This document shows, piece after piece, positions 1,604 to 60,762 of a stretch of 63,904 nucleotides of DNA (the first letter of the stretch is position 1; every line of letters starts with the position of its first letter). The notes beneath the pieces are model-generated. The model was not told the origin of the DNA, made no database searches, and saw nothing but the letters and a program-made list of their open reading frames with translations. A program made the translations under genes and the position numbers. Source of the stretch: Paraspadella gotoi (Eukaryota; Animalia; Chaetognatha); the NCBI GenBank assembly GCA_051294375.1, contig CM119266.1, forward strand, positions 6,031,431 to 6,095,334. The letters run 5' to 3'.

Positions 1604-2970
1604 TTTGATTCCTGTCGAGCGGTCGAGTTCAGTGGTCGGGGTCATATTTGAGGTCATCAGTCATCGTTTTGAGCTGAAATTGTGGTCATTAATTTTCCTT
1701 ATCACTCGTTGACGTTGGACATTTGTGGCCACCAGAGGTCATTACTTTTCTTGAAGGTTTTATGAATGTAATAAGAAAAGATAAGAATTGTGAAGAAACA
1801 ATATCTTTTTGAAATTAAGTGGGAATTTCGACTTGAGTCAAAATATGAATCTCTCGCTGAATCATGAGTGAATTATGAGTTTTAAATTTCACTAAAAAGC
1901 CACAAAAATCTCATAAACTGGGTTTTTTGAGATTTGGGTCTTGTGTTGTTGTTGTACTTACTACAACCCGACGAGAGAAACGTTTATTATTTTCTTTTAG
2001 TTAATGGAAAGGCCAGGCTTCTTTGTGACGTAGTCGTCGTCGTCGTTGTCGTCGGCGTCACGCTGTTTTTATATAAAAACTACTACGCTTTTATAGTTTT
2101 GGCTGGGACTTACCTTTTTTTTTAAATAAAAATTATTATAAATTACGATGAAGTTTTATAAATGTGTGCGATCGTAGTAAGTTAAAAATTTAGATATGGG
2201 TTCTCATCTTGAAAAACCTTTGAAATTGTTTTCAAATTGTTCGATTTTGCTCCCATCCTTCCCCCTGCCCACCTCTGCTCCCGCGATTTCCCCCCCGCCA
2301 CCACCCCTACGGGTGGCCTTAGCCTTTCTCGCTCTTCGCGTCGACTCGATCTTTTGAGACGTCTTTTGTTTCTTTTTTTCTATCTTCAAATTCGATCGCG
2401 ATCGAAAAAATGACAAAAGACTCATCGGACGAAAGTTTCCGCACCAGCGCCACGGATCTCTGTTCCCCTTTGACGAAAGATGTCGCGACCGCGGCGGCTT
2501 ACCTCTTAGGTTAAACAAAAGGACATCGGGAAATGATTTTTTCTCACTCAAAGTCGGACTTTATTCATGCGAGGCCATCAGTTTATCAGTTTTGTACTGA
2601 TTAGATTATCATTTTACACCGTTTATAGTTAAAGAAAAAAAATACTGCTGAAAAAAGACAGAGACAGACAGAATGAAAGACAAACAGTGAGAAAATAATA
2701 ATCAAGAAAAAAATTTATTGAACAAAAACTGGTTTCTTCTTCGCAGCAAATTAAAATTCCACTGCCGATTTCAGAAGGAAAAGATTATTCATTAGTTGGC
2801 TACTAAATCGACTCGAAGCGTTTTATATTTTAATTAAGAAAAAAGAAAAAATATGTAACAAATATATTTCAAGTATTTCTCCGTCATGAAAACTGTTCCA
2901 TGTCACAGACATTGTCGGGACAAAATTTTATGATATCGTTGAAGACTTTTGAGTCACTTTTTCCGTCGAA

Positions 2971-3672
2971 ATGGCGGCCAAGAATCCCTTCGCCGCTGAC
3001 AAATCCTATCACTTAAAAATCTATCGCGTTTTGTTTGAAGGAAGCCCGTCCATGTTGAGAGACTTGGTAGAGGTGGAACTTCCTGCTGTAACTGAGAAGC
3101 CCTGGAATGCTGGTGACCTGTGGAAAGAGTGGTACCTTGAGAATAAAGTCCAAATTGACAAATTCGATTATATCACAAAGATCAGGACTGTGGATTTCAG
3201 AGGAAATGAAGTTCCAGACTTGAGCGAAGCGGATGTGACATTCCTAAAGTTCGCGTTGAAGAAAATTGTCACGGACTTCAACCCCATTCAACAACTCGCC
3301 AAAAAGCGAAATGAATTCGCTCACATGAACTTTAAAGAGATGTCCCTCTTGGACTTCATCTCTATTTATGGCGACCTCGTCGATATATGTAGGAATCTTT
3401 TCAAAAAATATCGAGATTTGCGAGAAACGTGGGAGGGTTACCTGACCAACGTCGTACTCGAAGATGTGGTCGACAAAGATCAACTGGAAAAAATCTGTGA
3501 AGAACAAATGAAATTGTTCACCAGTGACCTTGAGAGCTTTGTGAGTCGTTGGAAGCTTCCTGGAGTAGATAAAGGAAGCAAAGTACGATTGAAAAGTCCG
3601 TCTTCTGAATCAAAACTAGAAAGGCAGTTCAGCAGCCTTGAGCAAGTGTCGAGCTTGTTAAAAATGAAATGA
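2971..3672 (+). CDS. N-terminal part of an NLR-like gene: DZIP3/hRUL138-type HEPN domain followed by a helical/linker region
   Basis: 233-codon non-repetitive ORF. The segment 'ADVTFLKFALKKIV...IQQLAKKRNEFAH' matches the DZIP3-like HEPN pattern (D-I/V-T-h-L ... R-N-x-x-A-H). The RxxxxH motif is at 3307-3324. It is in the same reading frame as the NACHT ORF, separated only by TGA 3670-3672. Confidence 0.75.
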   Translation: MAAKNPFAADKSYHLKIYRVLFEGSPSMLRDLVEVELPAVTEKPWNAGDLWKEWYLENKVQIDKFDYITKIRTVDFRGNEVPDLSEADVTFLKFALKKIVTDFNPIQQLAKKRNEFAHMNFKEMSLLDFISIYGDLVDICRNLFKKYRDLRETWEGYLTNVVLEDVVDKDQLEKICEEQMKLFTSDLESFVSRWKLPGVDKGSKVRLKSPSSESKLERQFSSLEQVSSLLKMK

Positions 3673-5560
3673 GAAACTCAAACACTGTTTGTGCCTCACA
3701 ATGCTAGAGCTTACATCACTATTGACTACATTGACGTTGGCTTTGAAAAAAAAGCTGCTCGCGTAAAAGCAACACCTTTGGCAATGATCAACGATCCAAC
3801 AAGCACTGGACCTCCCAAAGTTGCCGCTGAAGCTCCTTTACTTCCCTCTGTTCCTCAAGTCGCTACTATCGAATTTGACATCGATGTGGAATATGAAGAA
3901 AAGGATGATGATCCACCACGACAAAAGTTACGTAATCCAGTCAAGCAAGATTATTTCTTCAAAGATGTCATTTCTGAAATTGAGGAAAGTAAAATTAATA
4001 GATTCGTCATAGAAGCTAATGGAGGCTTTGGAAAATCAGTGCTAGCAAAAAACATTGTTCACAAATGGGCCAACGACGATTGTTTAACAATGTTTACGAT
4101 GGTTTTCCATTTAGAAATGAAGACCATGAACCTTGAAGACAGCCTTGAGGCTAATTTAATCGACCAGTATCATTGTCTGGGTAAGTATAATGACATCCAA
4201 TCATCGCTGATAAAAAATGCATCGAAAATCCTTTGGATAATTGACGGACTGGATGATTGTTCATCCCGAGCTGCTGCGAGAGAATTTTTGAGGAAAAACA
4301 TATCCGCCGCTTCAGATTTTGGTAGCAGTTATTTTCTGTTCCTTACTCGACCTTTAGGGAGAGATTTGCTCAAGGGAATATTGGCCAACGTCACTGAGTT
4401 CACAATTGCGCCACTTGGTGAGAAGCAAAAGGTGGACTTTGTGAAAAGTTTTCCTTTTTCTGAAGAAAAAGTGAACAAAGAAGAATCGATGGTGTCTAAA
4501 ATTGAGTCTTGTTCTTTTGTGAACAACTTCACCTCTGTTCCTTTGTTTCTGGTTATGTTATGCGCGATTTTTGACGACAAAAATCGCGGCAACGATTTAA
4601 AAATGTTATTAGACATTCTAGCTCTGACTCTGAAGCACGAACAAGGTCGTCTTCATAGGGAAAACGACAAAATATACTCAACGGCAACTATTCCATTTAT
4701 TACTGAAAACATCAGAATATTCGCCACACTGGGAAAAATTTTATTAACAAGCGAATTTGAAATATCGGACATAGAGCTGACTGATCAACTGGAAAAGACT
4801 CTCACGCCGGAGGAGGCAGCTGTGACCAGGAGATTAGAAATTCTGCATCACACTAGAGTCGCTCGTGGAACACGAACCCAATCATCGTTTTATGTCTTTG
4901 ACGAGAAACTAGAAGAGCTGCTCGTCGGAATTTTTCTGGTTCGCAACTCCGCGCCGATTCCTATACAGTCACTCCGCAACAAACTTGGTCAAAAGCAGAT
5001 CGACATTTTAAGATGCGCGTCTACTCTCTACCTTAATGATATTTTCTGCTTAAAAGATTTTACGCCAGCTTTTGACAAATACATCGAATTTGCTTTTGAT
5101 TCTTCGCAATCGTTCACCAGCTGGCGATGTTGGCAAGTCATTGGACAAGTGCTAAAGATTGGGAGAGAAAAGTTAACATTTGAACCCATGGCTCACAAAG
5201 TCACTGATTATGTCAAAGTCAAAGCGGAATCCCGTTTTTACACTGAAGATTTTCGATTTCTTCAACAAAATTTAAAGCATTTCTTTCGTTGCCTGAGATC
5301 TCATTCCATCGAGAGGGTTTGTAACAAATGCCTTTTGCCTGAAGAGCTCTTGAAGAAGATCACAGAATTGGGATTTGAGAATAAAGTTTTAGATATTCAG
5401 ACATGGCCGTTCAACGAGATACTATATGTTTCCAGAATTTTCTACATTTCCACAGAATTCATGCTTCTTTGCTTGCCAGTGGACGGTGACTCGGAAAAAG
5501 GTCATGCTGGTGAAAGCTGTATTCAAATCATCGCCAGGGCGGCTGTTACACTTCCTAATG
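3673..5560 (+). CDS. NACHT (STAND class) NTPase domain with downstream helical domains; same exon as the HEPN region
   Basis: Walker A 'FVIEANGGFGKS' (core 4015-4038), 'IVHKWA' helix, Walker B 'LWIIDGLDD' (4231-4257), sensor-1 'FLFLTRP', 'VPLFLVMLCAIF' (PLL-type motif), winged-helix-like 'FYVFDEKLEELLVGIFL'. The frame is open from 3673. A strong donor AATG|GTAAGT at 5560/5561 (phase 1) precedes the in-frame stop at 5599-5601. Confidence 0.88.
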
Positions 5561-5689
5561 GTAAGTTGACGAGCAGTTTATATAAAATAAAGGGAAATTA
5601 AAAGATAAAATTTTTAAAAAAGAAAGAAAAAAATTACTTTCTTATTTGGGAAGAAAGAAGAAAAAAGGAAAGAAAAAAAAAGAAAGATA

Positions 5690-5754
5690 GATATAAAATA
5701 ATAAATAAATAAATAAATAAATAATAAATAAATAATAAATAAATAAATAAATAA

Positions 5755-5790
<36 letters not shown>

Positions 5791-6040
5791 AATAAATAAA
5801 TAAATAAAATAATAAAATAAATAAATAAATAAAGAAAGAAAGAAAGAAAGAAAGAAAGAAAAGAAAGAAAGAAAAGAAAGAAAGAAAAAGGAAAGAAAGA
5901 AAGAAAGAAAGAAAGAGAAAGAAAGAAAAGAAAGAAAGAAAGAAAGAAAGAAAAGAAAGAAAGAAAGAAAGAAAGAAAGAAGAAGAAGAAGAAGAAAGGA
6001 AAAGGAAGGAGGAAGAGAAGGAAGGAAGGAAAGAAGAAAC
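5690..6040. repeat. Compound (AAAT)n / poly-A / (AAAG)n microsatellite in the NACHT-kelch intron
   Basis: Directly visible. Confidence 0.95.
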
Positions 6041-6078
6041 ACAGTTATAAAGAGTTAATAACTGTTTTCTATTCCAAG

Positions 6079-7166
6079 GAGTCCAACCGCCTCCGCCCAC
6101 CTCTGCTCTCCCTGATCCACTTCCTGTTCAACTGATCGAGGCGCCTCCTATCTTCGCCGCTGATCACGCGACGGCGAATCGATTCCCGATCGGCGTAGGA
6201 TTCGTCTCCGTCTTATTCAAAGGAAAGATTTATATTTTGGGAGGAGGTCAAAAACAGCCTGACGAAGATTTCTCTTATCTCCCAATCGATGTCTTCGTCA
6301 TGAATCCCGACGACGAGACATGGAACCGAATCAAACCCACGGGCGACGTTCCGCCGCCAACGACTTTATCCGTCGGCGTCGCGACTAAAGTCTCCGTCTT
6401 CCTCTTCGGTGGATCCGCGAACGGAAAAGTCACGAACGAAATCTTTACTTTCGATTCCAACGGAAAATTCGCGAAACTCGTTCCTGTCGGCGCAGTCCCT
6501 TCGCCTAGAAGAGAACACCGCGGTTGGGAATACAAAGGAATACTTCACTTCTTCGGTGGTTGGGGACCCACTATCAACTCCTCGACTGAGGGATATCTTC
6601 AAGGAGGCGATTTCGTCGAGTGGGAGGGAAAAGCCGGAATGTCCGCCACGAATCAACTGATTCAGTTCGATCCCACTATCAACGCTTTCTCTCTTCCTTC
6701 GACGACGGGGACGCCGCCGTCGCCGCGAATCAACTTCGGCGTCGCGCGTTTGAGAGAAAAGCTTTTTCTTCACGGTGGACTCTGCCATGGGAGATCCCTT
6801 AAAGACTTCTTTCTATTGAATTTGGATACATTAGCTTGGAGTGAGTTGGACGACTTTGGTTTGACTCGACCGACGTCCAATCACACGTTGACGCCAATAT
6901 CTGCCTCTGAAATTCTCGTCGTCGGCGGCGACTCCCCTGGCGGCATCTCGAACGAAGTCAAAATCTTCGACGCACAAAATTCGTCGTGGAAGGAAGAACC
7001 GAATCTGACGTCGGAATTCTGCGGCGGCGGAGGGTTGATGATGCACGGAGCCGTCGCCGTGAAGAAGAGAAATCGCGTCGTCAGAGTCTTCTGTTTTGGG
7101 GGATACGTTGATGAGGATAGGAAATCTCATCCTCGTCACATCGTCAAATTTGATCTTGAAGAATAA
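6079..7166 (+). CDS. Terminal exon of the NLR-like gene: Pro-rich linker plus kelch-repeat beta-propeller, KLHDC1/KLHDC2-like
   Basis: Acceptor ttttctattccaAG|GA at 6078/6079 restores the frame with the phase-1 donor at 5560 (6081 is in frame with the 6237 ORF). Six GG-containing blades: IYILGG, VFLFGG, LHFFGG, LFLHGG, ILVVGG, VFCFGG, with W and 'GxxPSPR' motifs. 'TTGTPPSPR', 'DFFLLNLDTLAWSEL' and 'HTLTPIS' recall KLHDC1/2. Stop TAA 7164-7166; AATAAA near 7202. Confidence 0.88.
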
Positions 7167-9330
7167 ACTATCGGACGAATAGCCATGATAATATTAATAA
7201 TAATAAATAACTATAAAATCCACGAAAACATAACATAAATTACGACGTGAAAAAACATTGTTTTCCATAACTATAAAACGGAAGGAGGAATATCACGTTA
7301 ATAAGCAACTCGATTGAAAACAACACAGCCGAAACTCCATCGACGACGACAACTACGAAATCATTTAAAAACCTTTCAAACCCAACGGATTTTCACAAAA
7401 TATCTTTTTCACTTTCACAAAAATATCCTCGACACTGTTTGACAAATGATGTTTCGCCAACAAATTGTAAAATTTTTAAAACTATTTAAATTGATCCCAG
7501 TAAGTCAATTTTGGGAATTTTAAAGCGCTATTTTTTAATTGCATTATATACAAATTTTACGAAAAGTAAAGGATTTTAAATTTAAGTTTCGTTGAAACGA
7601 TTGACTGACCCTTAACGCCCTCTAGCTCTCCCCTTTCCCACTGCGGGTTCCAATGCATCGCCACGCCAGATTTTTCCCACTCCACGCCACATATGATGGC
7701 GTGACGCCAAATCTCAGTCATCGGAGTTGTTCCGTCAACGTCCATTAGCGTCTCTCGATATTGCGGTTACGTGATTTTTGTCTCATAGTCTTGATTATAT
7801 TGGATTTATTTCAGTTTTTTTTGCTTACAAAAATCTACCTTTTGTTGGATAACAAAACTATTGGTGACAAAACTGTAATTATTTGTAATTTATTAACCAA
7901 AGGGGAAACATGTCCGTATCTGTCATTAAACATCATCGTTAATTATCTATCACAACGAAAATAATGAAACGTTCAACAATTTATAATAATTAATCAAATT
8001 GGACTTCATACATTTGAATTAACGCAGAAGATTGTCAAAAACAAATCTGTTTAATCGCAGACGAGTTTTATCAATCGAAAACTTAATTTTAATTGTTGTT
8101 AGTTTACAAAACAAAAACTTCTCTCATGCACTACGGCACGGTGATCTAGTTGGCCTAATTTTCGGGAAAAACCTCTCTTTTTTGGTAAAAACAACTTTTT
8201 CTCGTATGCTGATTTCATCGATGCCCTGGTGAGGTTGTTGGACAAAGTTTAAATGTTAATTTTGATTTGAAAAAAATATGGAGATAAAATTTATTAAACG
8301 TACGAACTACATTTGGTTCTTCAAGAAATCATTTATGGTAGTCGATCGACTTTTGATTTATAATTTCGATCTTAAACAGAAATTGATCAAACTTACTATT
8401 TTATCTTTATTTATATTATAAATATTAGGTGTTTGTTTGTAGTATCATTAGAAACTAAATCTTGTTGATTGAATCGGTCGAAATTGTATGAGTTTTTATT
8501 ATGTTTTTCATATCATACATAGTGACATAATATAAAAATCTTTTTTTTATTTGTTAACAAACTAGGCAAAAAGCTGGTAACATAACAAAGTCAAATAAAA
8601 ACAAACAAGCCTCTCAAAGACTTACCCGAAATAAGGATTTGCTTATAACTTGAGAAAGAATAATTTTTGGAAACTGTTATCTCAGCAGAGACTTTGTATC
8701 ATTACTATGGAAAGACTGAATATGTATTTATGCCCGTATGTTCAAGTGCCTTTTATCCGATTTTATTTTTCTTTTGGATCACTGTGTACGGGTTAGTTTA
8801 TCAAAAAATATTGAAACAACGTCCGATCATTAAATTTGTTAATTTAAAAAAGCTTTTTTTCACTCAGCAAAATTATTGTATTATCTTTTCATTTCTGTCA
8901 AACGTTATCTTTGCCGTTTTCTTTCATTGAACCAGATATCTTCAAACCAAACAAACCTGAGTTTAGATAAAGATTACAAAATATCTCGAAGTTAGACTTT
9001 GGTCAAACGAGAAATAACGTGAGTTCAACATTCGATTTACGACTTGAAGAGTGTGATCCATCAAAAAACCCATTCGTTTTTGGACATTTAAAGTTACAAT
9101 GTTCCTTCGCAAAAAAAAAACCACACGAGGGTTTTACGGATAAGTTTTTTGTTTTAAAATGAGATTTAATTTTAAAACAGATTTATTTTTGATAAAACTC
9201 ATTTCAAATTGAAATTAAACGACAAACTTGTACGGAAACTGTACCGATATTCACTTATATTCATAATTAAAAATAAACAATTTTTTTGCTTAAATCAAAT
9301 CCTACACATTTTCGACAACATCAACAAACA

Positions 9331-19155: not shown

Positions 19156-22100
19156 ACCGGCGGCGTCCTCTGCTTTCTTGGCGGCGTCGTCTGCTGCGCC
19201 TTCTACCGCCTCCGCCGCGTCGGCTGCGGCTCCTTCTGCCTTTTCGGTCACGGCCTCTTTTACCTAAAGAGGAAAATTATTAATTATAATTTATTACTTA
19301 TTTTTCCCTTATTTTCACTTAGTAGTATAGTTACTGATGGACTTTTTCATTAAATCTGAATAAGAATAAGAAATAACATATTTTTAATGAGATGGCGTTG
19401 TGATGAAACGGCATTAAGCGGTCGCCCAGTTGTGATTGACAAACGGCGAATGACCAAAAATGAATCATTAATTCTTTTCGAAGGAAAGAATAAACTGCGT
19501 GACTCACTTTGTGTTATTATAAGAATTATAATAATAAAATAATGGCTAGACAACGAAAATAACACATGAACAATAAATAACACATAATTCGATTTAATCT
19601 ACTAAATAGTATAAGTATTTCGAGGGCTACTGGCAATTCCGTGACTAAACATTAACCACAAATAAGTATCATTTTTAGAACATCATTGTCATAGTTATTA
19701 GATTGTTACTTTGATCGCATATTTGCATTCATACATTATTACTCTTGATTTGATCTTCTTTTCTTTTTTTTCTTCCCTTTACTTAGAGCTTTTTATTTAG
19801 AATTTGTTACTGATTGATGTTTTGTTTGTTACAATATCTAAAACATAACCCGAATAAAAAAAAAATACATTAAACGGAATCATAGATTCTAGGAAATACT
19901 TCAAAATGCTAATGAGATTAAGGTACCATTCAATCAAATCAAATCAATCAGCTCAATCGTCATTTTTTTTCTTTACTAATGTCATCTTCATCTTCATCTT
20001 CATCTTCATTAGATAATTTAAAACCCGAGAATTGAAAAAAAAAACTTTTTCAACAGACGGAAACTCTTTTTCCAAAATATGATTCATCCTTTCCAAATCC
20101 ATGACGCATTCTCCATCCTAGTCCCCCGACCCCGAAATTTGAAGTGAAACTCTTGCTTCGTAGCTTATGATTAACATAGACAAATTGTAGCAATATTCAC
20201 TATATTAAATAAAATATTATGAAAAATTTCCAAATTATTTGTTTTACTACATTAAACAAAATAAAACTAAATTTTAAACAAATATATGTCATTATAAAAG
20301 TTTAAAATATTTTTATACAAGAAGTTAAAATTAATAAATATTAAGTTTATTTCATATTTAATTAATATAATGGGGAGAAGAATGTTAGTATTGCCTTCTG
20401 GAAATGTTAAATTCTAAGCGTTAATATTTTTTAAAAATGCAAACCTGCTTTATTGGATTTTCTGGACAAATAACACTTTTATTTTTGTTTCTTTTACTCC
20501 TTCTCTATAAATGTATATATATCTTGTACGACTTAGTCCACCGCCTTTCTCCCCCACGAACCCTTCACCCCAACACCCAACACCCCCTCTACCCCAACAC
20601 CCCTCTACCCCAACACCCCCTCTACCCCAACAGCCCCCTCTACCCGAACCCACCTCCTCGATCTTTTCCGCGACTTGTTCCTTCACTTCCTCCACCTTCT
20701 CCTTTCCCGCCTCCACGCCCTCCTGCAGAGTCTCCTCCGCCTTCTGAGTGACGCCCGTCACCGCGTCGCCCGCGGAGGAGGCCTGGTTGTGGATACGGGG
20801 GTGTGAGGCGGAAGCGGGTTGGGGAAAGAGTGTGGGTAAAGAGTGAGGAAATGAGGTATGTGGGTGGAAGGGTTGTGGGAAGAGTGTGGGTAAAGAGTGA
20901 GGGAAATGGTGTGGTGTAAGGGTTTGGGGAAAGAGTGTGTGGTAAAGAGTGAGGGAAATGGTGTGGGGGGAAGGGGTGTGGGGGGAAGAGTGTGGGTAAA
21001 GAGTGAGGGAAATGGGTGTGGGGAAGGGGTTTTGGGGAAAAGCATTGTGGGGTAAAGATGTGAGGGAAATGGTGGGAGAAGGGTTGTGTAAGAGATGGGT
21101 AAAGAGTGAGGGAAATGGTGTGGGGGGAAGGGGTTGTGGGGGGAAGAGTGGGTAAAGAGTGTGGAGAAGGATTGGGAACAGATAGGAAATAGTGAAGAAG
21201 GTGAGGAAAAGGTAAGTGAAATGGGAACGGGCGGAGAAGGGTGGGGAAGTTTTCGGGAAAGGGGAAGGGACGGGATAAGTGCAGTTAAAAAAGTAAGTCG
21301 CATTAAATCGTAATTCATATTTTGTATTATCGATGTTGTAACTACTTCTTCGGCAGTACGACATATCTTTTTCGAAAACATTTGAACGATTGCGAAAAGC
21401 TAAATGTGATACTTGGTGAAAGATCACGTGTGAAGGAAGAAATCCGTTCGACGCTAACTTGATTCCCATTATTTAATTTTATAATCATTACATTTTTACA
21501 CGATGTTCAATTGTTCTTCTCACGTCGATCGCGGATTCTTTCACCGGAGTCTTTGTGAATCTAGAGTCGTGAAATTCACGATTCGTCTCAGTGAATGTAA
21601 CGTTGAGCGCGTGACGAGACTCTGAGAGTAGCTCATGAATTTTCGATCACCGAAAATGTAAAATACTTTTTTTAACAAAGTGAATTTAAAAAAAAAATTC
21701 GATCTAAGGTTTTATAGTTTAAAATAGAAGCTTAAATTTAAAAAGAAAGGAAGGAAGAAAGAAATAGAATCCTATTACAGCGAAAACGAGGCTGAAACGA
21801 GACAAAAAAAAAAGCCTTTGTGTCGCGGCCATCTTGAATTTTTTTGTTTATTTTCAAGAACGCTCGATATTGGCGGAATTTGTGAATTGTGATGACAACG
21901 TATTACTTAACATTTTAGTAAGATATACATACTAAGGCCGTAGTAAAATTTCTAAATTTAACTTTAATTAAAATTCTAAAAGTAAGAAACGACCACACAT
22001 TATATTAATGAACATTTATGTAATATAAAAATTTATAATAAATTTTACAATTTACGCAGTAGGCCATATTTATACTAGTACTAAACCAATAAATGTTAAA

Positions 22101-34603: not shown

Positions 34604-37600
34604 CACTATGAAGCATAGTAAGGTGGACAGCAGAAAATTTCATACAGCCTCGCTACCCCACCTGTAACCACTACACTATGAAGCCATGAGTAAGGTGGAC
34701 AGCAGAAAATTTCATACAGCCTCGCTACCCACCGTAACCACTACACTATGAAGCCATAGTAAGGTGGAAGCAGAAAATTTCATACAGCCTCGCTACCCAC
34801 CTGTAACCACTACACTATGAAGCATTAGTAAGGTGGACAGCAGAAAATTTATACAGCCTCGCTACCCACCGTAACCACTACACTATGAAGCCATAGTAAG
34901 GTGGACAGGCAGAAAATTTCATACAGCCTCGCTACCCACCTGTAACCACTACACTATGAAGCCATAGAAGGTGGACAGCAGAAAATTTCATACGCCTCGC
35001 TACCACCTGTAACCACTACACTATGAAGCCATAGTAAGGTGGACACAGAAAATTTCATACAGCCTCGCTACCCACCTGTAACCACTACACTATGAAGCCA
35101 TAGTAAGGTGACAGCAGAAAATTTCATACAGCTCGCTACCCACCTGTAACACTACACTAATGAAGCCATAGTAAGTGGACAGCAGAAAATTTCATTACAG
35201 CCTCGCTACCCACCTGTAACCCACTACACTATGAAGCCATAGTAATGTGGACAGCAGAAAATTTCATACAGCCTCGCTACCCCACCTGTAACCACTACAC
35301 TATGAAGCCATAGTAAAGGTGGACAGCAGAAAATTTCATACAGCCTCGCTACCCACCTGTAACCACTACACTATGAAGCCATAGTAAGGTGGACAGCAGA
35401 AAATTTCATACAGCCTCCTACCACCTGTAACCACATACACTATGAAGCCATAGTTAAGGTGGACCAGCAGGAAAATTTCTACTGCGAGCCTCCTAGCCTT
35501 ATGCCTATATCGTATACAGCTATGAAGCCATAGTAGGTGGAAGCAAGAAAAAATTTCATACAGCCTCGCTACCCACCTGTAACCACTACACTATGAAGCC
35601 ATAGTAAGGTGGACAGCAGAAATTTCATAACAGCACTCGACTACCCACCTGCTTACCCCCAACTACACTATGAGCCATAGTAAGGTGGACAGCAGAAAAT
35701 TTCATACAGCCTCGCTACCCACCTGTAACACTACACTATGAAGCATAGTAAGGTGCGACAGCAGAAAATTTATACAGCTCGCTACCCACCTGTAACCACT
35801 TACACTATGAGCCATAGTAAGGTGGACAGCAGAAAATTTCATACAGCTCGTACCCACCTGTAACCCACTACACTATGAAGCCATAGTAAGGTGGACAGCA
35901 GAAAATTTTCATACAGCCTCGCTACCCACTGTACACTACACTATGAAGCCATAGTAAGGTGGACAGCAGAAAATTTATACACCCTCGCTACCCACTGTAA
36001 CCACTAACTATGAAGCCATAGTAAGGTGGACGCAGAAAATTTCATACAGCCTCGCTACCCACTGTAATCACTGACACTATGAAGCCATAGTAAGGGGACA
36101 GCAGAAAATTCATACAGCCCGTACCCACCCTGTAACCACTACACTATGAAGCCATAGTAAGGTGGACAGCAGAAAATTTTCATCAGCCTCGCTACCCACC
36201 TGTAACCACTACACTATGAAGCCATAGTAAGGTGGACAGCAGAAAATTTCATACAGCCTCGCTACCCACCGTAAACCACTACACTAGAAGCCATAGTAGG
36301 TGACAGCAGAAAATTTCATACAGCTCGCTACTTCCACCTGTAACCACTACACTATGAAGCCATAGTAAGGTGGACAGCAGAAAATTTCATACAGCCTCGC
36401 TACCCACCTGTAACCACTACACTATGAAGCCATAGTAAGGTGGACAGCAGAAAATTTCATACAGCCTCGCTACCCACCTGTAACCACTACACTATGAAGC
36501 CATAGTAAGGTGGACAGCAGAAATTTCATACAGCCTCGCTACCACCTGTAACCACTACACTATGAAGCCATAGTAAGGTGGACAGCAGAAAATTTCATAC
36601 AGCCTCGCTACCCACCTTAACCACTACACTATGAAGCCATAGTAAAGGTGGACAGCAAAAATTTCATACAGCCTCGCCTGCCCACCTGTAACCACTACAC
36701 TATGAAGCCATAGTAGGTGGACAGCAGAAAATTTCATAACCAGCCTCGCTACCACCTGTAACCACTACCACTATGAAGCCATAGTAAGGTGGACAGCAGA
36801 AAATTTTCATACAGCCTCGCTACCCACTTGTAACCACTACACTATGAAAGCCATAGTAAGGTGGACAGCAGAAAATTTCATACAGCCTCGCTACCCCCTG
36901 TAACCACTACACTATGAAGCCATAGTAAGGTGGACAGCAGAAAATTTCATCAGCCTCGCTCCCACCTGTTAACCACTACACTATGAAGCCATAGTAAGGT
37001 GGACAGCCAGAAATTTCATACAGCCTCGCTACCCACCTGTAACCACTACACTATGAAGCCATAGTAAGGTGGACAGCAGAAAATTCATACAGCCTCGCTT
37101 ACCCACCTGTAACCCTACACTATGAAGCCATAGTAAGGTGGACAGCAGAAAATTTCAATACAGCCTCGCTACCCACCTGTACCACTACACTATGAAGCCA
37201 TAGTAGGTGGACAGCAGAAAATTTCCATACAGCCTCGCTACCCACTGTAACCACTACACTATGAAGCATAGTAAGGTGGACAGCAGAAAATTTCATACAC
37301 CTCGCTACCCACCTGTAACCACTACACTATGAGCCATAGTAAGGTGGACAGCAGAAAATTTTCATACAGCCTCGCTAACCCCACCTGTAACCACTACCAC
37401 TATGAGCCATAGTAAGGTGGACAGCAGAAAATTTCATACAGCCTCGCTACCCACCTGTAACCACTACACATGAAGCCATAGTAAGGTGGACAGCAGAAAA
37501 TTTCATACGCCTCGGCTACCCACTGTAACCACTACACTATGAAGCCATAGTAAGGGTGGACAGCAGAAAATTTCATACAGCCTCGCTCCCACCTGTAACC

Positions 37601-39177
37601 ACTACACTATGAAGCCATAGTAGGTGGACAGCAGAAAATTTCATACAGCCTCGCTACCCACCTGTAACCACTACACTATGTAAGCCATAGTAAGGTGGAC
37701 AGCAGAAAATTTCATACAGCTCGGTACCCACTGCTTAACCACTACACTATGAAGCCATAGTAAGGTGGACAGCAGAAAATTTCATGCAGCCTCGCTACCC
37801 ACGTAACCACTACACTATGAAGCCATAGTAAGGTGGAAGCAGAAAATTTCATACAGCCTCGCTACCCACCTGTAACCACTACACTATGAAGCCATAAGTA
37901 AGTGTGGACAGCAGAAAATTTCATACAGCCTCGCTACCCACCTGTAACCACTACACTATGAAGCCATAGTAAGGTGGACAGCAGAAAATTCATACAGCCT
38001 CGCTACCCACCTGTAAACCACTACACTATGAGCCATAGTAAGGTGGACAGCAGAAAATTTCATACAGCCTCGCTACCACCTGTTAACCACTACACTATGA
38101 AGCCATAGTAAGGTGGACAGCAGAAAATTTTCATACAGCCTCGTACCAACCTGTAAACACTACACTATGAAGCCATAGTAAGGTGGACAGCAGAAAAATT
38201 TTCATACAGCCTCGTACCCACCTGTAACCACTACACTATGAGCCATAGTAAGGTGGACAGCAGAAAATTTCATACAGCCTCGCTACCACCTGTAACCACT
38301 ACACTATGAAGCCATAGTAAGGTGGGACAGCAGAAATTTCATACAGCCTCGCTACCCACCGTAACCACTACACTATGAAGCCATAGTAAGGTGGACAGCA
38401 GAAAATTTCATACAGCCTCGCTACCCACCTGTAACCACTACACTATAAGCCATAGTAAGGTGGACAGCAGAAAATTTCATACAGCCTCGCTACCCACCTG
38501 TAACCCTACACTATGAAGCCATAGTAAGGTGGACAGCAGAAAATTTCATACAGCCTCGCTACCCACCTTAACCACTACACTTGAAGCCATAGTAAGTGGA
38601 CAGCAGAAAATTTCATACAGCCTCGCTACCCACCTGTAACACTCACTATGAAGCCATAGTAAGGTGGACAGCAGAAAATTTCATACAGCCTCGCTACCCA
38701 CCTGTAACCATACACTATTAGCCATAGTAAGGTGGGACAGCAGAAAATTTCATACAGCTCGCTACCCACCTGTAACCACTACACTATGAAGCCATAGTAA
38801 GGTGGACAGCAGAAAATTTCATACAGCCTCGCTACCCACCTGTAACCACTACACTATGAAGCCATAGTAAGGTGGACAGCAGAAAATTTCATACAGCCTC
38901 GCTACCCCCTGATCACGGCTGTAAAACGCACTACACTACTGAAGCCATAGTAAGGTGGACAGCAGAAAATTTCATACAGCCTCGCTACCCACCTGTAACC
39001 ACTACACTATGAAGCCATAGTAAGGTGGACAGCAGAAAATTTCATACAGCCTCGCTACCCACCTGTAACCACTACACTATGAAGCCATAGTAAGGTGGAC
39101 AGCAGAAAATTTCATACAGCCTCGCTACCCACCTGTAACCACTACACTATGAAGCCATAGTAAGGTGGACAGCAGAA
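34604..39177. repeat. Tandem satellite, 70-bp unit, about 65 copies
   Basis: Unit cactatgaagccatagtaaggtggacagcagaaaatttcatacagcctcgctacccacctgtaaccacta. Copies differ almost only by scattered 1-nt indels, and there are no unique spacers. Confidence 0.97.
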
Positions 39178-42305: not shown

Positions 42306-42349
<44 letters not shown>

Positions 42350-42354
<5 letters not shown>

Positions 42355-43958
42355 GCCCTGCAACCCAGGCCCCAGCGTTGACGCTTTTTCTGGATATTAA
42401 ACTCGGGAGTAAATCCCTTTCCTCTTCTCTCTCTTTTTTAATTTTTTCCTTTATTTTTTTTTCCTAATTATCTCCCTTTTTTTTTCTGTTGTTCTTCATT
42501 TTAGGGTATTTTTTTCCTCCACTCAACATCTTTTTTTGTTTTATTTTCTAATTTAATTTTCGGTCTTATTGCCCAAAGCGCCGCGTTTCATCTTAAATAC
42601 GAAATTAAATTAGTGTTTAGGTACTAATTAGGTTTTGAGATTAGATAGTTTAGGGTGATAAGGCTAGGCGATTAAGGCTTAGTGGAAATTAGGATATTAA
42701 GATTTAATAAGTATTTAAGATTTTTCGTTAGAGTAGAGGTTTTTAAGGATCTGAGATTTGGGTAAAAGATTAGGCTAAACAATTATGGATAGAATTTTAG
42801 TTGAAGGGTTGAGGATCAGACGAGAGTTACGGTTACGGTTACTAGATCTAGATTAAACATTATCGCTTAAAATTAAGTTCAGGGTTAGAGGAAGTCGAAA
42901 TTGATTTCGCTTTTAAGAAAAGAAGCAGCCTCATTTTTTTTTATATCTTCCCCCAGTTTAATAAATTATTAATTCTCTTATTAGTTTTATCCTATAAAAA
43001 AAAATTCGGTGAAGTTTCTCTCGAATGACATTTAAAAAAAAAGCGGATACAATGAATCACAGTTTTTTATTTTGTTTTAATAGCGATTTTGTTTTTGAGA
43101 GAAGTTTATACGAATATAAAAAGACAAACACAAATGATTGAACGGTTCGTTTTAAGTTCGCTAATAAAGTAAACGAGCGTTAAATATATATCCGGAAAAA
43201 CACTCTTACATAGCAATTTAGTGAAAAAAAAAAAACCGGAGACTTTGTTAAGAATTTTTCCCACTAGTTTATAAAAAAAAAAATCATACTCTTTTGGTCC
43301 GTTGAAAAAAAAGATTTAAAAAAAACACACAAAAAACTGGTTGGTGTTTCTTTCTGGAACGCAAGATCATTCATCTTTTTCTCCTCTCTGTCGTGTTTAT
43401 TGACGGAATCTTTAACACGCAATATAAATCTTAAATCTGTTATTACGAAAATTCATCCAAATATTTCAATATTCTTTAGCATTCACATTTCTTTGTCATC
43501 ACTATCAGTGAACCTCTGTTGTCTTGCGTCTTTCCGTAATTAAACTACTTTTTTATAATCATCATCATCCATATCATGCAATAGCATCATCAATCATCAT
43601 CGTTCTCAATACATCATGCATCAGTCATCATCATCAAATCTATCATCATCATATAATCATCATCATACATCATCATATAGCATCATCGTCATCATCTCGC
43701 GAATTGATTTTTGACGAAGAAGAAAACAAAAGATTACTTTTCTTTGATTGGTGATTGACAAAGAAACGAAAAACGATTTCCATTTCAGTCTGGAGGCCTC
43801 TCTCTCTCTCTTCTCGTCTCTCTCTTCTCTCTCTCTTTCTCTTCTCGGGTCTCTCTCTCTCCTCTTCTCTCTCTCTTTCTCTTCTTTCTCGATTCCCTTT
43901 CTCCTCTTCGTCGTCTGAATTTGTAACCACTGGNNNNNNNNNNNNNNNNNNNNNNNNN

Positions 43959-43992
<34 letters not shown>

Positions 43993-45392
43993 CCCTCCAG
44001 ACTGAATGGAAATCGTTTTCGTTTCTTTTTCAATCACAACAAAGAAAAGTGAATCTTTTGTTTTCTTCTTCGCAAAATCGAATTCGGAGATGATGACGAT
44101 GATGCTATATGATGATGTATGATGATGATTATATGATGATGATAGATTTGATGATGATGACTGATGCATGATGTATTGAGAACGATGATGATTGATGATG
44201 CTATTGCATGATATGGATGATGATGATTATAAAAAAGTAGTTTAATTACGGAAAGACGCAAGACAACAGAGGTTCACTGATAGTGATGACAAAGAAATGT
44301 GAATGCAAAGAATATTGAATATTTGGATGAATTTCGAATAAAGATTAAGATTTATATTGGGTTAAAGATTCCGTCAATAAACACGACAGAGAAAAAGATG
44401 AATGACTTCGTTTCCAGAAAGAAAACACCAGTTTTTTTTTGTTTTTTTTTAATCTTTTTTTTCAACGCGACAAAAAGAGTATATTTTTTTTTTAAACTAG
44501 TGGGAAAATTCTTAACAAAGTCTCCGGTTTTTTTTTTCACTAAATTGCTATGTAAAGTGTTTTTCCGGATATTATTAACGCTCGTTTTACTTTATTAGCG
44601 AACTTAAAACGAACCGTTCAATATTTGTGTTTGTCTTTTTATATTCGTATAAACTTCTCTCAAAACAAACTCGTTATTTTAAAAAAAATAAAAAACTGTG
44701 GATTTCATTGTATCCGCTTTTTTTTAAATGTCATTCGGAGAGAAACTTCACCGAATTTTTTTTTATAGGATAAACAGATAAAGAGAATTAATAATTAAAC
44801 TGGGGGGGAAGATATAAAAAAAATGAGGCTCTCTTTTCTAAAAGCGATCAATTTCGATTCCTTAATCCCTGAACTTAATTTTAACGATAATGTTTAATCT
44901 AGATCTATAACCGTAACCGTAACTCTCGTCTGATCCTCAACCCTCAACTAAAATTCTAATCCATAATTGTTTAGCCTAATCTTTTACCCAAATCTCAGAT
45001 CCTTAAAACCTCTACTCTAACCGAAAATCTTAATACTTATAAGTTATAACAAACTAACCTAATCCCTAACCTATTCACTAACCTAATCCCTAGCCTTATC
45101 ACCCTAATATCTAATCTCAAACCTAATATTTATACCTAAACACTAATTTAATTTCGTATTTAAGATGAAACGGGCCGCTTTGGGCGAATAAGACCGAAAA
45201 TTAAAATTAGAAAATAAACAAAAAAAGATGTTGAGTGGAGGAAAAAAATATCCCTAAAATGAAAACAACAGAAAAAAAAAGGAGATTAAGGGAAAAAAAT
45301 AAAGGAAAAAATAAAGAGAGAGAAGAGAAAGTGGATTTACGTCAGTTTAATATCCAGAAAAAGGTCAACGCTGGGTGCCTGGGTGCAGGGCG
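42350..45392. repeat. About 1.45 kb inverted duplication centred on the 25-N gap 43934-43958
   Basis: 42350-43810 is the reverse complement of 43985-45392. The same translation 'MRLSVIKLLFYNHHHPYH...' appears at 43524+ and 44261-. Differences are mostly indels. Confidence 0.93.
42562..42930. mobile_element. MITE-like element, same family (mirrored at about 44826-45195 by the inverted duplication)
   Basis: Left end ggtcttattgcccaaagcgccgcgtttcatctt; right end cgcttttaagaaaagaagcagcc. Interior of ttagg/ggtta-like units. Confidence 0.5.
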
Positions 45393-45809
45393 AGAGAGAG
45401 AGAGANNNNNNNNNNNNNNNNNNNNNNNNNNNNNNNNNNNNNNNNNNNNNNNNNNNNNNNNNNNNNNNNNNNNNNNNNNNNNNNNNNNNNNNNNNNNNNN
45501 NNNNNNNNNNNNNNNNNNNNNNNNNNNNNNNNNNNNNNNNNNNNNNNNNNNNNNNNNNNNNNNNNNNNNNNNNNNNNNNNNNNNNNNNNNNNNNNNNNNN
45601 NNNNNNNNNNNNNNNNNNNNNNNNNNNNNNNNNNNNNNNNNNNNNNNNNNNNNNNNNNNNNNNACTATAATTGATTTTGGTTTTTCCCGCTTCTGTTATT
45701 TATTCGCGCCCAACATTTTAAGCCGTCGACATGGCAACGGCGGACAACCGCGCCTCGAGGGCGAGATAGAGAGAGAGACGCTCGGCAGTAAAAACTTTTT
45801 TTGTTCGTT

Positions 45810-48800: not shown

Positions 48801-50489
48801 CCGTGTTTCTATACGTATATACTATATGCACGACACAGCAAGAGGATGAAAGAAAGAAAAAACGAAACCGAAGAAAGGAAGGGAAAACAAAGAGAAAAAA
48901 AGAAAAAGTAAAGAAAAAAATTAAAATAAAAAGAAAAAAAGAAGGGAAAAAGTTGACAAAACAAGAAATAAAGAAAGAAAAACCAGTGAAAAAGAAGAAA
49001 AAAGGAAAGAAAGAAGAAAAAAATAAAATGCATAAAAGAAAAGAGATAAAGAAAAGAAAGATGGAAAGAAAAGACCAAGTAAAAGTAAAAAAAGAAAGAA
49101 AGAAAGAGGAGGATCTCTAAAGTGCTCCAAATGACTTTCCTGTTTCTGTTTTGAAGACAGAATGTAATGCTCGAGACGTTCGGCTTCTTATGTCTCTTAA
49201 GAAACCTAGAATCCGGTTAATTTCTCGCACTGTTTTGCAATAAATTTTATAAATTGATTGGACTTTTTTCCCTTGAATAGTTAAATTAAATATTAATTAA
49301 TTAATTCATAATCAATTTTCTACGACATTCCCAAATCCTGACTAAAATTATATCTAACCTTTACGTACAGCTTAACAAAGGAGTTTTAGCATTGTTTCAA
49401 ATGAATTGCTAATGAGAGAAAGATTGAAAAAAAAAGGCCTTTTGCGTCTTGTTGTTTTGTTTTTTTGTGCCAAACTTTACGACTGACACATTGACGTGCG
49501 TATTAAAGCAAAATCTAATGAACAAGAAAAATGGTCAAAAAGCTCAAAAATGTTTTCATGTTTTTCTTTTCATGTTTTAGCCCGAGGTTGAGTTTTTCGG
49601 AGCTTTGTCTCCTCTGCTCTCTTCTCTCTCTCTCTCTCTCTCTCTCTTCTCGTCTCCTCTCTCTCTCTCTCTCGTCTCTCTCGCATCGATTATTTATGAA
49701 GTTTTTTCGCGGGGAGAGGGGGAAGAGATTTAAGGTTCAGATAGGGCTTGAGGTGGCGTGGGGAAAGAAGATTTCCAGAAGAAAGCGTGGTTTGTTGTAA
49801 GACGGGGTTTGAGAATAAATAGAAGGGGATCCGCGTGAAAGTCAAAAACGGCTCGGTTCGGAAAAAGTTTGTACGGTTCCTTTCAAAGAAACCAAAATTC
49901 GATTCGCGGAATTTAAAGGCTTTCGACTGCAATTATCGGGTGAAGTGAAAGCAAAGTCAAAGTATACCACGAAAAACTAGCAACCGTTTCTCGTTTTGTA
50001 TTACAAACTATAAACCTTTCTAATATATAATTCCTCAATGCCATTTTCGAATAATAACCAAACCAATTGAATTGTAAAAAAAAACAAGTTTGAGCAACAA
50101 TGGTCGGAATCTGCCCTACGATAATTAATTAATTAATCGAAGTTAATTTAATTAATTAATTAATTAATTAATTTTATCCACTCTATGTAGATCTAATTAA
50201 TCTTTCTAAATTTATACCCTCTTCCAACTTATCAATCATCGATCTCCCTCAAATTTTGGTTAGGAACAGGTTTTATTAAATAAATGTTTTGTTTTACATT
50301 TTAATACTCAACCAACAACAAAAAAAAATATCCTCTATTTTATTTTAGTCTCCTTCTCTCTCTCTCTCTCTCTCAACTCACTCTCTCTCTCTTCCATCAT
50401 CTCTCTCTCTCTCGTCCTTTTTTTTTTTCTGCCAATTGCCGACGAATCTTTATGCTTTTCAGATTCCTCTGCTCTCAGTCCTCTCTCTC

Positions 50490-60762
<10,273 letters not shown>

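Follow-up and report, generated by a model that had tools for sequence, protein, structure and literature searches.

A spliced gene of the chaetognath Paraspadella gotoi joining a HEPN-like domain, a NACHT domain, and a KLHDC2-like kelch propeller

The DNA analyzed here, which we call the window, is a 63,904-nucleotide stretch of contig CM119266.1 from Paraspadella gotoi. Positions 2971 to 7166 hold one spliced gene whose single chain carries a probable HEPN domain, a NACHT domain, and a kelch propeller resembling that of KLHDC2. Three open reading frames (ORFs) lie here on the + strand, at 2953-3672, 3673-5601, and 6051-7166. A preliminary description, made from the letters alone, had joined them into one frame of about 1225 codons through an in-frame TGA and a GT-AG intron at 5561-6078. 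By the ORF list and translation, the joined frame (2971-5560 plus 6079-7166) is 1225 codons long; its one internal stop is the TGA at 3670-3672 (codon 234), and it holds no further stop or frameshift. The start ATG at 2971 has the context GAAATGG, and the terminal TAA occupies 7164-7166. We compared the gene with a public sequence run, X1 (one run of one study, likely RNA, its type guessed by software; it contains 0.60 of the sampled words), and with relatives, given P numbers below, from a homologue search. In that search the HEPN+NACHT part was run against 1.84 billion representatives; 208 matches were obtained at E ≤ 0.001, and the best 150 were examined. The features of the gene are as follows.

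2971-3465, + strand: HEPN-like helical domain (amino acids 1-165) of DZIP3/CXorf38 type, predicted RNase effector (Atlas features, RNxxAH conservation, weak Pfam matches, models)
3134-3186, + strand: variable patch in the HEPN insert, with 8 amino acid differences from X1 within amino acids 55-72, both versions in frame
3307-3324, + strand: RNEFAH (R113-H118), candidate HEPN Rx4H active site (conservation, register with RNKIAH)
3659-3712, + strand: 54-nt patch with the TGA, a lesion or assembly error (X1 comparison, family motif)
4015-4446, + strand: NACHT nucleotide-binding domain (Pfam NACHT, family profile)
4015-4038, + strand: Walker A, ANGGFGKS (motif)
4237-4257, + strand: Walker B, IIDGLDD (motif)
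4342-4353, + strand: sensor-1, LTRP (motif)
4447-5000, + strand: helical domain 1 (HD1) and winged-helix domain (WHD), from the family profile alignment; the WHD His site is Asp644 (4900-4902)
5001-5560, + strand: family-specific helical region with a conserved Cys (5014-5016), His..CxxC (5302-5331), and a WP motif
5561-6078, + strand: phase-1 GT-AG intron with ends GTAAGT...TTCCAAG, skipped in the X1 contig and made mostly of simple repeats
6079-6185, + strand: proline-rich linker (translation), which also precedes the kelch of relative P0016
6186-7166, + strand: six-bladed kelch propeller, candidate sensor (Pfam, KLHDC2 match, six GG blades), ending at the last strand
7167-7597, + strand: probable 3' untranslated region (X1 record 7)

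The splice is seen directly in X1. Record 4 of this run matches 3621-5559 and then 6078-6195, skipping exactly 518 bases with GT..AG ends, as the proposed intron predicts. Because the record begins within the first ORF, the tail of that ORF, the NACHT region, and the start of the kelch lie on one spliced contig; rather than ending at 5601, where the second ORF closes, the contig runs on into the kelch. Other X1 records cover 2967-3563 and 6277-7597, the latter (record 7) extending further. In the kelch exon, no in-frame ATG precedes the one at 6300, which falls within the propeller, so this exon alone is unable to make the whole domain and the upstream exon is needed. Motifs, Pfam, and translation bear out the domain order given in the preliminary description: HEPN, NACHT, helical domains, Pro-rich linker, and six-blade kelch. 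Third-position GC is 0.51 in the HEPN ORF, 0.39 in NACHT, and 0.56 in the kelch. Runs X2 and X3 showed no coverage of the gene, and across the 64-kb window tblastn found neither a second copy of it nor another NACHT gene.

The NACHT domain, with the Walker and sensor-1 motifs originally proposed for it, was recognized by Pfam at E 2e-14 (54.2 bits versus a cut-off of 26.7). The first Gly of Walker A is Ala in the window, as it is in several relatives. A profile of the family matched NLRC4 (E 1.3e-9) and NLRP3 (E 1.4e-8), and the best PDB matches of the single NACHT sequence were NLRP14 and NLRP5 (E 4e-4 to 3e-3). The alignment of this profile to NLRC4 extended through HD1; in the WHD, a weak alignment (6.4 bits) was obtained to the FIHMTFQE motif of NLRP3. 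Pfam scans at E ≤ 1 revealed no leucine-rich repeat (LRR) family; the protein is thus NLR-like and not an NLR in the strict sense of NACHT plus LRR.

In a NACHT tree of the window and the top 45 of the 118 matches that cover the NACHT core, the window grouped with P0001, P0002, P0005, P0007, P0012, P0016, and P0026 with support of 100/100, on a long terminal branch (1.34). This clade shares a long C-terminal region with the conserved Cys, His..CxxC, and WP; the Cys and His..CxxC of the whole clade possibly form a zinc site in an undescribed domain. Eight relatives reach the end of this region: one continues into a kelch (P0016), in one a second P-loop NTPase follows at the same point (P0151; STAND-like, amino acids 470-832), and six stop 63 to 135 residues past the CxxC. 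These six ends are probably intron or contig ends and hence uninformative about the sensor. The N-terminal domain was matched by 10 of the 150 listed matches. N-termini in the family comprise HEPN (the window, P0153, and P0042), a low-complexity segment (P0005), and a helical segment (P0016). The last of these (amino acids 1-140) has faint similarity to the tail of the second NTPase of P0151 (E 0.013), and an Atlas search with it gave only leads under 0.9, winged-helix-like; from these sequences, tandem-NTPase members of the family may exist. P0153 is an unbroken HEPN-NACHT chain aligned over query residues 10-836 (E 2e-39), and P0042 is continuous from HEPN into Walker A. Window and relatives share only 21 to 30% identity, yet the catalytic-type motifs and all six blades are kept. 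Such module exchange within the clade is typical of immune receptors.

The third ORF matched Pfam Kelch_KLHDC2 at E 6e-46. KLHDC2 was the best solved-structure match both for the window propeller (E 3e-24; next family, LZTR1, 1e-14) and for that of P0016 (E 1e-24), a 4273-nt Logan contig in which a family NACHT leads through a Pro-rich linker into the kelch. The two propellers are 30% identical (E 5e-36) and have in common an LQGGD motif that KLHDC2 lacks at this position, a resemblance consistent with one fusion event. In KLHDC2, the C-terminal carboxylate is held by R236, S269, and R241 (PMC11470957, PMC11568203); residues 1-362 bind substrate without binding Elongin B/C, for which the tail beyond 362 is needed (PMC8013793). 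HMMER alignments place L/S/S at the equivalents of R236/R241/S269 in the window (one of three kept) and R/R/Q in P0016 (two of three kept). Both propellers end at the last strand and, judged by length, have no room for an Elongin B/C-binding tail; the window propeller would end at about the equivalent of KLHDC2 residue 362. Because of the missing tail and the differing pocket residues, the domain resembles a binding module detached from its ligase, the pocket having diverged between paralogues.

What is the N-terminal domain? The RNEFAH in it had been taken as a HEPN signature. The motif is well supported: RNxxAH occurs in 10 of 11 aligned rows (10 relatives plus the window), the His in all 11, and a D-x-T motif precedes it. 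In an alignment-based model (predicted local distance difference test [pLDDT] score, 82), RNEFAH closes helix 104-117 of an all-helical core. The assignment to a defined HEPN family fared less well, with profile scores below the Pfam cut-offs and weak fold matches. The best Pfam match to the window domain was HEPN_RiboL-PSP (E 4.6e-5, below cut-off). HEPN_DZIP3 (PF18738) did not match it at E ≤ 1, although it matched 5 of the 11 aligned members weakly (best E 0.0017); five HEPN Pfam families in all gave weak matches to members of the alignment, none above cut-off. The HEPN profile of the family recovered the HEPN_DZIP3 domains of P0058 (E 1e-4) and P0130 (E 3e-4) among the 153 retrieved proteins, and hhalign placed RNEFAH onto the RNKIAH of P0130, a Pfam-confirmed HEPN_DZIP3 protein (E 0.0016, with a probability of only 16%). 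Atlas features related the domain at 0.93 to HEPN_DZIP3/DUF4559 clusters from molluscs and cnidarians. In a fold comparison, the longest core match of the model was AbiF (Z 6.3, root mean square deviation [rmsd] 4.7, 140 amino acids), and Csm6' was also matched (Z 4.9, rmsd 5.0, 108 amino acids); both are HEPN proteins, but such Z values do not rise above the noise seen with helical proteins. In PDB sequence searches, neither the domain nor its profile returned anything meaningful, and a single-sequence model was poor (pLDDT 44), its fold searches leading to generic bundles only. In our judgment, these sequence data point to a divergent HEPN with high probability and, as such, to a predicted RNase.

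The TGA was resolved by comparison with X1. At 3659-3712, record 4 differs from the window by seven small insertions (net +9 nt) and five substitutions, and its reading is stop-free across the patch, with 688 codons open, all that its contig covers. The order of the insertions was set by the distance-from-end values; the listing is left-shifted, and the order as listed gives a stop. A full X1-type gene would have ∼1228 codons. Against a pre-NACHT motif profile built from eight relatives with the window excluded (two of the eight rows share one cluster), the X1 reading scored 22.0 bits, gap-free, and the window reading −1.7 bits. Because X1 has an open reading that matches the family motif, and because P0153 is unbroken, the TGA is best read as the product of a damaged patch and not as a recoded codon. 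The frame first proposed therefore stands in length, with one TGA in the window, while its passage through the TGA does not, X1 being stop-free with no read-through. As to the cause of the damage, we judge an assembly error modestly more likely than a null allele; the clustered deletions of 1 to 2 nt resemble poor consensus. A small intron that would remove the TGA was also considered; no convincing donor and acceptor spare the HEPN motif region and the linker, and there is no such intron in the X1 contig.

X1 and the window differ elsewhere as well. The variable patch at amino acids 55-72 suggests gene conversion, or that X1 represents a close paralogue or a sister species. Loose ends of two X1 contigs suggest an in-frame, duplication-like insertion of 30 nt at the start codon of the X1 copy (2967-2984). 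Over the first kelch blade (6166-6306), two X1 records with 3 and 10 differences overlap, and at 6710 another X1 contig joins, with >255 unlike letters before the junction; these records may represent kelch alleles or paralogues in X1.

The window as a whole reads as eukaryotic DNA, rich in repeats and interrupted by scaffold gaps. The intron, the nearest solved-structure relatives (NLRP/NLRC4 and KLHDC2), and the mollusc and cnidarian Atlas neighbors point to an animal origin. A tandem array at 34604-39177 has a 69- to 70-bp unit in ∼65 copies with 92% matches. Two large inverted duplications flank N gaps (50467-55152 versus 56397-60691 and 42339-43833 versus 43959-45405; 82 to 91% identity) and are either fold-back elements or assembly artifacts. 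The − strand has an open frame of 340 codons at 20453-21472 that contains 54-bp repeats and a short, acidic helical segment (weak YtxH match, E 0.004); it is possibly an exon of an LEA-like gene.

HEPN-NACHT proteins as a class are already known. The pearl oyster has >50 HEPN-NACHT genes, and LRR, TPR, or WD40 ends occur among its NACHT proteins (PMC9646362); cnidarians have 17 to 83 HEPN-NACHT genes per species, with anthozoan expansions (PMC8260672). Such bivalve and cnidarian proteins with LRR/TPR/WD40 are candidate immune receptors (PMC9646362, PMC8260672). Like these and other invertebrate proteins in which a HEPN of the DZIP3/hRUL138 or CXorf38 type is fused to NACHT (PMC9646362, PMC8260672, PMC3710099, PMC8662601), the window gene has an N-terminal HEPN with RN-x-x-x-H, a central NACHT, a C-terminal repeat domain, and a diversified family, and in both cases function is predicted. 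Unlike them, it ends in a KLHDC2-like kelch and not in LRR, TPR, WD40, or ankyrin; its HEPN is too divergent for HEPN_DZIP3, its WHD His is lost, and its NACHT falls in a clade of its own with the His..CxxC region.

Likeness to other systems is more partial. Among plant NLRs, those of grasses have kelch as an integrated domain (PMC5819176), and kelch is also listed among the rare alternative solenoids (PMC9825502); there, too, it lies on the sensor side of a STAND immune receptor. Plant NLRs differ in having NB-ARC, CC/TIR effectors, and alternative solenoids often alongside LRR, whereas the window gene has NACHT, a predicted enzymatic effector, and no LRR; the two kelch fusions presumably arose independently. 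KLHDC1 and KLHDC2, C-degron receptors of cullin-RING ligases (PMC11568203, PMC11470957, PMC8013793), have the same six-bladed kelch, but the window and P0016 propellers depart from them in the missing tail and the altered carboxylate anchor. The effector-NACHT-sensor layout is that of NLRC4/NAIP and of bacterial NACHT/Avs proteins, among which HEPN effectors and WD40 beta-propeller sensors occur (bioRxiv 10.1101/2022.07.19.500537, PMC13581612); unlike the bacterial proteins, the window gene has a spliceosomal intron, and its H443 equivalent is already Asp.

The preliminary description did not recognize this architecture, and its novelty holds for one part. Kelch was found in 1 of the 150 listed matches (P0016), which is also 1 of the 153 retrieved proteins, and the matches listed, 64 of which were covered by the Pfam scan, yielded no other protein that combines all three domains. 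A word-based homologue search (the NACHT ORF and the kelch against longer proteins, HEPN+NACHT against proteins near its length) gave no matches, which is weak evidence, as it missed P0016; metagenome locus scans confirmed nothing. Among the papers listed by the literature searches (with subscription journals, InterPro architectures, and the domain-combination supplement of PMC9646362 outside their scope), we found no report of NACHT-kelch or HEPN-NACHT-kelch. The word "kelch" is absent from the main texts of PMC3710099, PMC8260672, PMC8662601, PMC13581612, PMC8195603, and bioRxiv 10.1101/2022.07.19.500537 and from the supplementary files of PMC8260672 (eight) and PMC8662601 (one); it was not found for the fungal NLR survey PMC4986451, in the part of that source consulted. 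Kelch and NACHT are mentioned separately in PMC6208332, PMC4039239, and bioRxiv 10.1101/2022.03.13.484165. HEPN-NACHT was thus known in invertebrates and kelch, if rarely, in plant NLRs; the likely new part is the KLHDC2-like kelch sensor, which we have not found described for animal receptors.

On balance, we favor the view that the gene encodes an NLR-type intracellular immune receptor, a reading that we hold to be probable by analogy with NLRC4/STAND and HEPN biology, from which its steps are taken. A protein ligand would bind on the top face of the kelch propeller, and binding would release autoinhibition. Oligomerization of NACHT would then bring HEPN domains together into a composite two-HEPN active site, and the pair would cut RNA, resulting in a halt of translation, cell death, or destruction of invader RNA. 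A tentative elaboration, which we regard as unlikely, is that a C-degron reader of a ubiquitin ligase was captured as an NLR-like sensor and dropped its tail; the RNase would be triggered by new C-termini that arise from pathogen proteases or deubiquitinases or in the course of ribosome quality control, and the pockets of paralogues would read different ends.

A number of observations weigh against the receptor reading. The HEPN lies under every Pfam cut-off (best, 23.8 versus 28.4 bits), and its Atlas recognition of 2275 is below the 2300 mark; Foldseek with the HEPN model gave no match at E ≤ 0.001, and a wide VIA fold search placed no HEPN protein in its top 50, the results of both being dominated by the C-terminal helices. 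No single X1 contig among those listed spans the HEPN motif and the kelch, and the X1 contig may be a processed DNA copy rather than a transcript. The window allele carries a stop. Over 3715-5559, window and X1 differ by 7 nonsynonymous and 3 synonymous changes (ratio of nonsynonymous to synonymous differences per site [pN/pS], 0.64; P = 0.46), which are too few to judge selection, so purifying selection is not shown. The second acid of Walker B is Asp in the window and Glu in 10 of the 10 relatives that cover the site. The window copy is without stretches of the family HD1/WHD, and the WHD His (NLRC4 H443 type), present in 11 of 11 relatives, is Asp644 in the window, with no difference in X1 at this codon. 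Both NLRC4 and bacterial NACHT proteins, bNACHT25 included, become hyperactive when the H443 equivalent is lost (bioRxiv 10.1101/2022.07.19.500537). Because the conserved His is lost, simple ligand-gated ADP/ATP switching does not appear assured in the window copy, which may sit in a primed state, with something else keeping it off, or may be a worn sensor partner. With Asp in place of the ADP-latching His, it is probably the kelch or a partner, more than bound ADP, that keeps the copy in check.

The worn partner deserves separate consideration, although we think it somewhat unlikely. In this reading, pathogen factors that target KLHDC-type ligases would be lured by the kelch, serving as an integrated decoy, and the protein would signal via, or restrain, a second NACHT protein of the family instead of switching on its own. 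The His-to-Asp change, shared by window and X1 contig, fits such a role, as do the use of Kelch_1 as an integrated domain in plant NLRs (PMC5819176), the origin of the donor fold in a host ubiquitin-ligase receptor, and the many divergent family members, some with two NTPase modules. Yet Walker A, Walker B, and the sensor-1 Arg are kept and the HEPN motif is intact, P0016 has a kelch and keeps its WHD His, and the 64-kb window lacks a second NACHT gene. An expressed, nonfunctional copy of the expanded family, present as a null allele in the sequenced individual, is improbable. The stop and seven small deletions of the window, the lost His, the near-neutral pN/pS on 10 changes, and the long terminal branch could all reflect decay, but the X1 copy is open over 688 codons and fits the family motif, the 1225 codons hold no other stop or frameshift, and motifs and blades have been kept at 21 to 30% identity to relatives.

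NLRP5 and NLRP14 are oocyte proteins with a nonimmune role, and they give the best single-sequence PDB matches of the NACHT. Kelch propellers, moreover, are general protein binders. A nonimmune function such as regulated RNA processing or a scaffold is nevertheless decidedly improbable in our view: the family profile puts NLRC4 and NLRP3 above NLRP14 and NLRP5, and module exchange, fast divergence, and the variable patch better suit conflict genes. Extremely improbable is a real recoding of the TGA (read-through or selenocysteine), or production of HEPN and NACHT-kelch as two proteins. The window TGA does lie in frame between two open frames, but only the stop-free X1 reading fits the pre-NACHT motif, P0153 and P0042 are continuous, and the Trp and Cys codons of the gene are 16 TGG and 18 TGY.

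The receptor reading matters for several reasons. The ligands of invertebrate NLR-like proteins are largely unknown, and a kelch fold with a solved ligand pocket (KLHDC2, which binds C-terminal peptides) makes the ligand directly testable. A predicted enzymatic effector with a simple read-out does the same for the output; no HEPN-NACHT protein is shown to be an RNase in the parts consulted of the HEPN-NACHT literature cited above. If the C-degron-reader idea is true, the sensor would be a C-terminal counterpart of the protease sensing by NLRP1 and CARD8, which sense proteases. The gene would also extend the integrated-domain idea from plants to an animal-type NACHT family, and, having naturally lost the ADP-latching His, it provides a test case for how such switches stay off.

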